Positions 42,358 to 57,569 of a stretch of 64,000 bases of DNA are shown one piece after another (position 1 is the first letter of the stretch; the number at the start of each line of letters is the position of its first letter). Source of the stretch: Saccostrea echinata (Eukaryota). The DNA is taken from the NCBI RefSeq assembly GCF_033153115.1, contig NW_026889766.1:2480001-2544000 (forward strand), written 5' to 3'. Position numbers and translations under genes: made by a program. The notes beneath the pieces are model-generated. The model worked only from the letters and a program-made list of their open reading frames with translations, was not told where the DNA came from and did no database searches.

Positions 42358-42495
42358 CAATACAATCTAAGGACACGGCACTGGGATTAGAACAGCCATA
42401 AATACATGATCCGTTAAAAGCATCACAATGTTTGTCCTCACACTTATCACTGCATGTATTAGTACATCCAAAATGATATTTACTTTTATCACAAC
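42358..42495 (-). pseudogene. Copy B exon 4 (EGF-like)
   Basis: GCDKSKYHFGCTNTCSDKCEDKHCDAFNGSCIYGC..DCI; 138 nt, AG/GT, open. Confidence 0.85.
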
Positions 42496-42701: not shown

Positions 42702-42958
42702 CCATTTCTATTACCTCGCATACTTCAACTGATGTCTTTCCTATATTTACACCCGAACAGCTTGACGTAAATCCGTTTGGTCTTTTATTAAAGAGGGCCA
42801 TTCCATAAGCTATTTTATTCACAATTATGTTCTTGAAAGGCAATGGGCAACCTGACATATGATCCTGATGGTACACTAGACTCCCCATGTCTCCAAAGAG
42901 TGGAACATGGGATACTTTTTCGTAAGTATATATGGAGTATCCAGTTGACCGGTTTTTG
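42702..42958 (-). pseudogene. Copy B exon 3 (lectin-like domain, C half), 1-nt deletion
   Basis: RSTGYSIYTY..GSLVYHQD..GCP..SVEVCEVIEM; 257 nt between AG and GT, one short of frame-preserving. Confidence 0.8.
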
Positions 42959-47441: not shown

Positions 47442-48345
47442 GAATTCGACAGGTAACCCCTCAGAACCAGGGCATTTGATGAGATCGATTTTTAAAAAAT
47501 GGCATAAATTATTTTTCATTTCCTCCTAGCAAGTTATTTCAAAGTTGCTATGCTTGTAAAAAAGTGTTATTCAGATATATTACAGTATAAGCTGGTCATA
47601 TATGGAGGGACTTTATTCACTGTTCGTTATCTTACCTTGTCATTTGAAATTTGCTCATTACCTCCGTAAACCTTGCAATCAAATTATTTATTTCTGTGTT
47701 ACCAGGAAAATTGAAAAAACCAGCACGCAGGCCCTTTTAGATAAAATTGCAACATTGAAATTTATATCAAACTTTAATACTGAAGGTCTATTTGCAAAGA
47801 TCGCGTGATTTCCACCTTAGGTGACTGGTTTAAACATAAAATTCATTCATCCTAAATATACTTTTTTATCAGTATCATATCTGCCAATCACTATTAAAGA
47901 TTTACATTGAAACACCAAGCGTTATAAAGAATGAATTCTTATCATAACAAATCACCAACATCTCTATTATAATGGTGCATTGACTTATCCTTCGTAGAAT
48001 ATCACAGATATAGTTAAGACATGAAGCTCAAAAGAAAATTTTTATTTTATACTAAAATGTCGCTTTTAATAGATACGTGAAAAGGTATTTTAACAACTTA
48101 ATTACATATCCTTTTAAATTTTCTGATAATTTAGTATAGTTAACACACAGTACTTGATTTTAAGCTAAGGAAAGTCTAATATAGTCGTTAAGTATGATTT
48201 TATTTTTTTTTTCAATTCTACCTTTTAAATGTAAGTAATGAATATGTAGCTTCTTTTAGAAGGAGAGCATAGCAACAACTATATACGTTCAGACACATGT
48301 ATATTACAACAGAAAAGGTTTTTATTAAAGCTAAGGAATACTTGC

Positions 48346-48582
48346 TGTAAGAACGCAGATAGATCTCTAAATATACTATACTATATTTCCTGTTTAACCA
48401 TACTTTCCACCAAACTGATTTATAATTATTAATATCGAAAGCAGCAATGGCACATGTAGTAAGATAAGTCTGAAGAGTACTACCATCTACCACTTTGTCA
48501 GGAGTCAAGCTGCTGTAATGAGGAGCAATATTCCAAAAGGCGGTTCATTGTAGATTATGCTCAGGTGTATGTGCCAGATTAA
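48346..48582 (-). pseudogene. Copy B exon 2 (lectin-like domain, N half), with in-frame TGA
   Basis: INLAHTPEHNLQ*TAFW..DKVVDG..CAIA..VWWKVWL..LEIYLRSY; TGA at 48547-48545; GC donor; paralogous to 11083-11307. Confidence 0.85.
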
Positions 48583-48750: not shown

Positions 48751-48847
48751 TAAAACCCGAGATCTTTGATACAGAGTGTATCAGAAAAAATAGTAAAATT
48801 GCATCCAACCTTATATCTGTATATTTTAGATGTTTGGCGTCATTCAT
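48751..48847 (-). pseudogene. Copy B exon 1 (leader/signal peptide)
   Basis: MNDAKHLKYTDIRLDAILLFFLIHSVSKISGF, phase-1 donor A|GTAAGT. Confidence 0.7.
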
Positions 48848-56385: not shown

Positions 56386-56684
56386 TTATATGACCTCATT
56401 AAATTCAGAATTTCCATAAGTATGTATTTCTTGGTAGACTGATTCTCTGTTAGTGGAATTAATGGATGTGTAATGGTGATCTTCTTTTCCGCCTGTTAAC
56501 TCGTCATACTTCTCCTCTGTATCCTTGCTAGACAGATGGTCAGTATTGCTGTGTTCTCTTGCGTTCTGTTGCAGACATCTTGTTCTTTTGAGATATATAA
56601 CTATAGTCAGTGCACTGAGAAGTATTACTCCAAGAAGCGTTGAAATGACGGAGATGACGACCAAGGACGTTTTAGAAAACTCTT
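56386..56684 (-). CDS. Receptor copy C terminal exon (TM plus ITAM/ITIM tail)
   Basis: Acceptor TTGTTTTTTCAG, phase 1, 299 nt, open; TM helix; EEKYDEL-x8-YTSI-x6-SVYQEI. Confidence 0.85.
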
Positions 56685-56966
56685 CTGAAAAAACAATGGT
56701 TTGTACCAAAAATGTAGATTACATTCCTCATTCATTTTCTTCAATGTTGTCATTTCGAAGAAACATTTCTTTTTTATATATTTTATATGCAATTCAAGAG
56801 AAACGTTGGTTGTACAGTGTTAGTGAGTTTTTTTTGAACAAAATAAAATCCGATACCAATATGTCTCCTTTGGACATTAAGACAAATATATTCACTTACT
56901 ATCTCCTTAATGTTGGGTGTTAAAAAGTATTTTAAAAACGATTAATTAAATTATAGAAGTACTTAC

Positions 56967-56996
56967 CACCTGTTCTTGATTCCCTTGTAGTATAAA
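56967..56996 (-). CDS. Receptor copy C 30-nt stalk mini-exon
   Basis: TTTTTAG|TTTATACTACAAGGGAATCAAGAACAGGTG|GTAAGT; encodes VYTTRESRTG, phase 1-1. Confidence 0.75.
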
Positions 56997-57437: not shown

Positions 57438-57569
57438 CATTGCACATAGGCCCCTGCCAGTCCTGTAAGCAGCCTTTAGTGCAGGTTCCTTTCTTCTTAT
57501 CACAAATTCCTTGGATGCAATTTCCACATTGCAAATTGCAGCTTTCGTCATATAATCCATTAGCACATT
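57438..57569 (-). CDS. Receptor copy C EGF-like exon
   Basis: ECANGLYDESCNLQCGNCIQGICDKKKGTCTKGCLQDWQGPMCN; 132 nt, open; GC-type donor G|GCAAGA. Confidence 0.85.

Follow-up and report, generated by a model that had tools for sequence, protein, structure and literature searches.

ITAM-bearing receptors have been described in flies and mice, where Draper and Megf10 are examples (PMC8092387), and they are also found in oysters. CgIgR of Magallana (Crassostrea) gigas carries the ITAM YTEL-x8-YEKL, co-precipitates with CgSyk, and is reported to promote ERK phosphorylation and phagocytosis (PMC6994640). Vertebrate paired receptors are kept alike by gene conversion and their activating copy is often lost; in these pairs, the ITIMs of the inhibitory member recruit SHP-1/2 and the activating member borrows DAP12 (PMC13358205). 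SudRes1 of Biomphalaria sudanica is a duplicated cluster of MEGF/GBD receptor protein tyrosine phosphatases (PTPs) that has been tied to schistosome resistance (PMC12297450), and three single-pass MEGF/GBD genes without a PTP domain (BSUD.15167, 17728 and 17729) are located beside its phosphatases (PMC12297450, Supplementary Data 5). Thus, oyster ITAM receptors, paired receptors and the lectin-EGF receptor PTPs at SudRes1 are already known. A literature search returned no description of the triple-tyrosine family presented here, or of a pairing between ITAM receptors and receptor PTPs, but this is weak evidence because much of the work on oyster immunology is published in subscription journals, most of which were outside the search.

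The DNA analysed, referred to as the window, is a 64-kb stretch of the Saccostrea echinata genome. It contains the last three exons of a gene designated C, the upstream exons of which lie beyond the window end. The interval singled out in the original prediction coincides exactly with the last exon of this gene, including the AG acceptor, the stop codon and the reading frame (Table 1). This exon encodes a transmembrane helix, followed by a basic stop-transfer stretch, about 65 residues of tail and the stop, and it corresponds with 100% identity to residues 442-540 of XP_061180534.1 (P0001), a S. echinata RefSeq model of 540 residues that is named MEGF10-like. From the N-terminus onwards, the gene C product consists of a beta-sandwich, two cysteine-rich units, four 44-residue EGF-like repeats, a stalk, the helix and the tail, and its predicted structure shows one helix followed by a disordered tail. 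The predicted topology places the ITAM on the tail side of the one hydrophobic helix and its basic stop-transfer stretch. As read from its sequence, gene C encodes a predicted receptor that crosses the membrane once, with a lectin fold as its head, EGF repeats as its stalk and three YxxL/I motifs spaced 12 residues apart. Since the P0001 model lacks a signal peptide, its 5' end is probably incomplete. The splice donor of the last EGF exon in gene C is GC (57438), and the same may apply to the first lectin exon of a second copy, B (near 48345).

Table 1. Positions of the receptor gene features in the 64-kb window
Feature	Position	Strand	Remarks
Gene C, last exon, 299 nt	56386..56684	-	AG acceptor at 56685, stop at 56386, in frame
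Gene C, triple tyrosine module YDEL-x8-YTSI-x8-YQEI	56425..56508	-	Tyr codons start at 56508, 56472 and 56436
Gene C, stalk micro-exon, 30 nt, phase 1-1, AG/GT	56967..56996	-	10 residues
Gene C, last EGF-like exon, encoding 44 residues, with a GC donor	57438..57569	-	100% match to P0001 388-431
Likely gene-conversion tract C/B (transmembrane and stop-transfer codons)	56566..56673	-	Partner 29872-29979
Copy B, last exon, intact helix and triple-Tyr tail	29692..29990	-	Tyr codons 29814, 29778 and 29742
Copy B, micro-exon, dead	30084..30113	-	TAA at 30085-30087, GG replaces GT donor
Copy B, EGF exon remnant	32160..32246	-	No acceptor, truncated
Copy B, EGF exon, frameshifted	33797..33929	-	133 nt
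Copy B, EGF exon	38221..38358	-	In-frame TAG at 38240-38242
Copy B, first cysteine-rich/EGF-like exon, open	42358..42495	-	
Copy B, lectin-fold exon 2, open	42702..42957	-	5' boundary approximate
Copy B, lectin-fold exon 1	48346..48582	-	TGA in frame (48545-48547); position of the 3' end approximate
Copy B, signal-peptide exon, approximate	48752..48842	-	63% over 19 residues to the P0002 N-terminus
Gene A, lectin-fold exon 1	11083..11307	-	100% over 61 residues; first exon of XP_061180609.1 (P0038)

The tail peptides that had been quoted for C and B were both recovered in frame on the minus strand, and their tyrosine codons could be located; the copy B tail reads YDDL-x8-YASI-x8-YQEM. An ITAM consists of two YxxL/I units with 6-8 (at most 12) residues between them and D/E at -3. 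In gene C, the ITAM consensus D/ExxYxxL/I is matched in its strict form, with an acidic residue at -3 and an 8-residue spacer. The proposal that Y2 and Y3 could form a second, overlapping ITAM was borne out at the sequence level as well, with two overlapping strict D/ExxYxxL/I-x8-YxxL/I matches. The C and B tails were the sole clean double matches in coding sequence upon a six-frame scan of the window, and in 2000 shuffles of the C tail the ITAM core appeared in 1.0% of the trials and the triple with both intervals of 12 residues in 1.2%. The E-x-H-x-Y context in the tail may resemble that of CD79b. ITIMs follow the loose consensus S/I/V/LxYxxI/V/L and ITSMs the consensus TxYxxV/I. The ITIM that had been proposed at Y3 of gene C (SVYQEI) matches the loose form, but so do 18% of the shuffled C tails. 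Y3 fails the stricter ITIM pattern xYxxL/V (PMC13358205). B, C, P0002, P0004 and P0005, all from Saccostrea, share a fourth tyrosine six residues past Y3 (56404-56420, minus strand); it is seen in this genus only. Upon comparison of the tail alone with the PDB, no match was obtained at E 10, and the Atlas feature matches for the tail were all ≤0.82. The Atlas neighbours of the gene C product belong to several clusters of 50-116 mollusc proteins each. No RNA run was listed with the sequence in a search of sequencing runs, which returned 7 rows with shares of ≤0.12.

When residues 1-260 of gene C were used as an ectodomain query, 33 proteins were matched: 19 have a helix followed by a non-phosphatase tail, 4 are of the phosphatase type and 10 have no helix in the model. 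The pattern Y-x11-Y-x11-Y was present in 14 of these 19 tails, or in 12 of 17 (Crassostrea and Magallana relatives) when P0001 and P0002 are set aside. Among the other five, two had one ITAM-like pair, two had none, and a freshwater-mussel match had other spacings. Together with tail-found matches and one cluster member, the 19 ectodomain-found proteins made up a set of 26 non-phosphatase tails. Rather than being lost in these further paralogues, the triple with its 12-residue intervals was found in 20 of the 26, compared to a summed shuffle expectation of 0.05 of 26 (about 0.1-1% per tail). Exactly 12 residues separated successive tyrosines in 42 of 56 gaps, and the median identity over the 28-residue core was only 36%. 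L/I/V was found at Y1+3 in all 20 triple tails, Glu at -4 of Y2 in 18, His at -2 of Y2 in 19 and D/E at -3 of Y3 in 15. The strict D/ExxYxxL/I pattern is limited to 3 of the 26 tails and the YxxL/I core to 14; several tails have Met, Val, Arg or Lys at Y2+3, often Met. It should be noted that many of the family rows are alleles or recent paralogues and hence not independent; about five deep lineages can be distinguished in the tail tree. In the sequences compared, the spacing is kept across three oyster genera, Saccostrea, Crassostrea and Magallana, and the view that the tyrosines and their spacing are under selection is supported by these patterns. In two S. cucullata receptors, P0004 and P0005, the same helix and triple-tyrosine tail are joined to ectodomains that are much less closely related (about 30% identity), so that the tail module must itself have been transferred from one ectodomain subfamily to another.

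Copy B can be traced from a signal exon near 48800 down to the tail at 29692. The last exons of B and C share 83% nucleotide identity and the tails 54% amino acid identity. Across 36 membrane codons dS was 0.03, whereas in the tail dS was 0.61 and dN 0.27 (Fisher p=3e-4), and the longest identical run measured 60 nt (permutation p=1e-4). Recent gene conversion fits the near-identical membrane codons better than constraint, because the third paralogue, P0002, is unlike C at several residues of this segment. The kept tyrosines of B and C had been taken to imply selection, and selection is indeed supported by the wider family. The B/C pair alone, however, is weak evidence, because these are recent paralogues for which the chance of keeping all three tyrosines is about 0.16 (0.54^3). 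Copy B is most likely a pseudogene, judging from its three stops, frameshift, exon remnant and lost donor, although assembly error may account for these lesions. In the ectodomain tree, its branch is three times as long as that of C. Directly after pseudogene B, there is a frameshifted LINE-type element (23769-29097, minus strand), with endonuclease and reverse transcriptase pieces at 23769-27163 and a coiled-coil ORF1-like region at 27919-29097. Downstream of the gene A lectin exon, an inverted repeat of 1.75 kb and 92% identity (16-1770 and 4987-6724) surrounds a tandemly repetitive stretch (2180-2933); this is probably a transposon or foldback element.

The head of the gene C product gave weak F5/8 type C-like hits in Pfam. 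Its structure model, with a mean pLDDT of 81, matched 1k12 and 3cqo at E ~1e-8 (TM by target of 0.68 for 1k12); fucolectins of eel and bass are thus matched by the head, and CBM32 modules of bacteria about equally well. According to the motif definitions in PMC5712786, the F-type cation motif h2DGx is present (AVDGN in P0001 and most relatives), but the fucose motif HX24RXDX4(R/K) is missing in all 16 domains examined, where the His and Asp are replaced. Membership of the canonical F-type lectins was therefore rejected despite the shared fold and cation motif. Like MEGF10, Draper and CED-1, which are EGF-rich single-pass receptors with a tail ITAM that is read by Syk or Shark (PMC8092387), the present family has multiple EGF-like repeats and a tail ITAM. 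However, the Pfam search of the gene C product found no EMI domain, with F5/8 type C-like hits in its place, and the family tails inspected contain no NPxY motif. For these two reasons membership of this class was also rejected, and the MEGF10/Draper name, which RefSeq derived automatically from it, is wrong. Further differences from MEGF10, Draper and CED-1 are the lectin-fold head, the short tail with three evenly spaced tyrosines, and the organisation as a multi-copy, fast-evolving cluster. The automatic names in the family also include scavenger receptor class F-like. The EGF units are 44-residue single exons that are 60-100% alike across the triple-tyrosine and phosphatase classes. One repeat, P0001 344-387, is identical at 44 of 44 positions to residues 176-219 of P0046, a phosphatase model on another contig, which could reflect a recent exon exchange or a gene-model chimera.

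A search with the ectodomain among longer proteins gave 11 matches, 9 of which are receptor PTPs, and the phosphatase partners bear the RefSeq names PTP alpha/epsilon/T-like. The D1 catalytic motifs HCSAGVGRTG, WPD and the Q loop are intact in all 12 phosphatases examined, and the pTyr loop reads KNRF, not KNRY, in 11 of them. The C-terminus of each of the 12 is formed by a conserved IYAN(M/T), reminiscent of the C-terminal phosphotyrosine site of PTP-alpha. As to a second PTP domain, two Pfam stretches were detected in both P0038 and P0047. P0056 and P0057, C. virginica proteins with Ig, GAIN/GPS-type and 7TM-2 domains that are encoded on the same large contig as the other C. virginica members, are likewise matched by a part of this ectodomain, which suggests a possible third signalling end, an adhesion GPCR.

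Within the window, this class is represented by gene A, the lectin exon of which is the first exon of XP_061180609.1, a model for a receptor tyrosine phosphatase with two PTP domains whose other exons are located outside the window. The order on the strand is therefore C, B and then the phosphatase, so that genes C and B and the start of the PTP model are all found within 64 kb. P0038 is without lectin exon 2, and the models of P0038 and its near twin P0046 are without a membrane helix; this helix is present in the phosphatase relatives from S. cucullata, C. virginica and M. gigas. The gene A lectin exon is not sister to that of C, with 50% identity and a position outside the Saccostrea group in the tree. 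The incompleteness of XP_061180609.1, together with the placement of its lectin exon, makes the local link between C and a phosphatase weaker than the family evidence. One 58.3-Mb contig of C. virginica encodes both classes, under neighbouring accessions.

Two simple relationships between the tail types were considered and rejected. One is that the triple-tyrosine tail represents a truncated phosphatase juxtamembrane region. In a profile comparison, for which one PTP row was left untrimmed, the membrane helix alone was aligned, with a probability of 46%, and on this comparison the two tails are judged not to be homologous beyond the helix. The other is that one gene is spliced to either tail. 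This was rejected for the window because the lectin exons of A and B are distinct, and it is further contradicted by the separate LOC numbers of the C. virginica members. The Logan contig proteins P0021 and P0019 combine lectin, EGF and transmembrane parts, one with each tail type, which argues against pure gene-model chimeras.

The relationship between the ectodomains of the two classes was assessed in a tree set of 26 rows, 16 with triple-tyrosine and 10 with phosphatase-type tails (two of the latter truncated after the start of D1). After the first tree, 14 of 40 rows had been dropped (11 without a classifiable tail, 2 with two tyrosines and 1 near-duplicate), and three tail labels (P0029, P0078 and P0042) were corrected after this tree had been seen. 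A further 4 rows that were not cuttable at the domain boundary were left out of the lectin-part and EGF-part trees. Separate descent of the classes would give two ectodomain clades. This expectation fails, since the tail types are interleaved, with at least 6 switches forced by starred branches. A single phosphatase clade was rejected (AU p=6e-6; mixture model p=4e-5), and phosphatase monophyly was rejected separately in the lectin part (2e-57) and the EGF part (3e-7). All 15 triple-tyrosine ectodomains of known genus are nearer to a phosphatase ectodomain than to the triple-tyrosine ectodomains of other genera. In the 15 intact rows, the best identity between ITAM-type and PTP-type ectodomains was 66-90%, with sister pairs at 86-90% in C. 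virginica (XP_022310265 and A0A8B8C4M0, for instance, at 86%) and at 80-83% in Magallana. The phosphatase ectodomain nearest to that of C, at 74%, belongs to S. cucullata, compared with 55% for the best triple-tyrosine match of C in another genus. Clustering by tail type was weak or nil compared to shuffles, 37 of 500 of which were as low. Such near-shuffle clustering fits an exchange of ectodomains, but it would also fit blind homogenisation in a tandem array. Conversion at the DNA level was seen directly for B versus C, the only pair open to such a test.

As judged from these comparisons, the arrangement is a paired-receptor pattern: linked genes with similar ectodomains that appear to be kept alike, and with different signalling tails. 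The paired-receptor idea thus fails for B versus C, for which it had been put forward, but survives with a sister-ectodomain receptor phosphatase as the likely opposing partner. The oyster genes resemble vertebrate paired receptors in their linkage, similar ectodomains, conversion, differing signalling tails and loss of activating copies (PMC13358205). Unlike in the vertebrate pairs, the oyster receptor itself bears the ITAM in its tail, and a phosphatase is built into the partner. The FcoR receptors of the tunicate Botryllus and the Alr receptors of Hydractinia are likewise clustered and have ITAM/ITIM-type tails, divided between activating and inhibitory members, but they differ from the oyster family in their ectodomains and in ITIM-based inhibition (PMC12582321, PMC9546547). 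In the available portion of PMC12582321, no shared-ectodomain receptor-PTP partner is described for FcoR or Alr. CgIgR is, like gene C, an oyster single-pass receptor that has an ITAM with an 8-residue spacer, and the E-T-P before the second tyrosine of its ITAM is also seen in the Magallana Y2-Y3 pair (PMC6994640). In contrast to gene C, CgIgR has five Ig domains instead of a lectin fold with EGF repeats; the available text describes one ITAM and no phosphatase sibling for it (PMC6994640).

Our preferred reading is that the gene C tail likely works as an activating ITAM, on which an oyster Syk-family kinase would dock, and that receptor phosphatases with sister ectodomains likely oppose it. 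We assign this reading a probability of about 0.52. Docking of the ITAM/Syk type is, by analogy with CgIgR, probable, whereas opposition by a sibling phosphatase, which is read from ectodomain relationships, is put forward tentatively, at somewhat less than even odds. Upon ligand clustering, a Src-family kinase would phosphorylate the tail tyrosines, next to which acidic residues are found at -3 or -4. The pair Y1-Y2 or the pair Y2-Y3 would next be bound by tandem SH2 domains; with three sites, binding could take place in two registers, or a second reader could be accommodated at Y3. The bound Syk-type kinase would lead to ERK activation and phagocytosis, as reported for CgIgR. The sibling phosphatase, upon binding this ligand or a similar one, would remove the phosphotyrosine marks and set a threshold. 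Repeated swapping of ectodomain exons would maintain the match between the two specificities, and copies of the activating type, B among them, would decay. Against this explanation counts the finding that amphioxus Syk is able to inhibit instead of activate (PMC13344425).

It is also conceivable, though we consider it unlikely, that the ectodomain mixing is a by-product of unequal crossing-over or conversion in a tandem array and that the triple-tyrosine receptor is functionally independent of the phosphatases. This would agree with the likeness of the EGF exons across the classes, including the identical P0001/P0046 repeat if that is not a model chimera, with the label clustering near shuffle level, and with the conversion that also reached the membrane segment of a pseudogene. 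However, both tail modules are old and have been kept in each genus (PTP D1 is 65-74% identical across genera), sister pairs that include the lectin domain recur in at least 5 lineages, and the linkage of both classes recurs in C. virginica.

CD45 and PTP-alpha prime Src-family kinases. A sibling phosphatase could similarly help an ITAM tail, either by priming such kinases or by being switched off by the ligand, in which case both receptors would push the same way. The PTP alpha/epsilon/T-like names and the IYAN(M/T) end of the partners agree with this possibility, as does the control of RPTP activity by ligand-driven dimerisation that is discussed in PMC12297450. Nonetheless, we regard it as rather improbable, because matched ectodomains and the loss of the tyrosine-tailed copy B fit paired receptors, in which the activating partner is commonly lost (PMC13358205).

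There is a small chance that the tail has an inhibitory role or serves as an adaptor scaffold, in which an ITIM-like Y3 together with Y2 would recruit SHP2/Corkscrew or SHIP, not Syk. Y3 does fit S/I/V/LxYxxI/V/L in 10 of the 20 triple tails and TxYxxI in 4 more, and an inhibitory Draper isoform binds Corkscrew (PMC8092387). On the other hand, the ITIM pattern is loose, as the shuffled C tails show, and fixed 8-residue spacers suit Syk-type tandem SH2 domains and match CgIgR.

Endocytic and lysosomal sorting signals follow the consensus YxxPhi, and each of the three motifs fits it. The tail could then belong to a scavenger-type uptake receptor, for which the scavenger receptor class F-like names would be apt, and its tyrosines would not be phosphorylation sites; this is very improbable, since sorting signals need no fixed spacing, whereas the 12-residue gaps and the acidic and His positions of this family are conserved. 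Lastly, the version in the original prediction, with B and C themselves as inhibitory and activating members through an ITSM versus an ITIM at Y3, is hardly tenable: residue -2 of Y3 does differ (Thr in B, Ser in C) and the last exon of B is open, with a tail dN/dS of about 0.44 relative to C, but B is disrupted by three stops and a frameshift, has one exon reduced to a remnant and shows a GG in place of a donor, its TAYQEM has Met at +3 and so misses the ITSM consensus, the same ITAM core is kept in both tails, and Ser or Thr at -2 of Y3 is a family trait (17 of 20 triple tails) and no switch between B and C.

Mollusc receptor clusters are large, polymorphic and poorly annotated, and they have been tied to disease resistance; genes of the triple-tyrosine family are mislabelled as MEGF10, draper or laminin in RefSeq. 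The conserved tail offers a direct assay handle, by way of Syk binding and Tyr-to-Phe chimeras, and the pairing with receptor phosphatases provides a testable logic for discrimination without antibodies. The SudRes1 PTPs resemble the oyster partners in combining a galactose-binding-like domain, EGF repeats, a transmembrane segment and tandem PTP domains (PMC12297450); this likeness is one of domain and gene composition. The term ITAM does not occur in the SudRes1 main text (PMC12297450). By analogy, BSUD.15167, 17728 and 17729 are candidate activating partners. It is possible, if on balance doubtful, that oysters, and perhaps all molluscs, possess paired immune receptors in which a diversified lectin-EGF head is repeatedly swapped between a triple-tyrosine ITAM and a built-in phosphatase, with a kinase-versus-phosphatase threshold for the distinction of self and non-self, and that SudRes1 is the same system, its non-phosphatase neighbours being missed activating partners. 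The prediction for SudRes1, a locus of public-health interest, is that the single-pass MEGF/GBD genes beside its phosphatases should bear ITAM-like tails.
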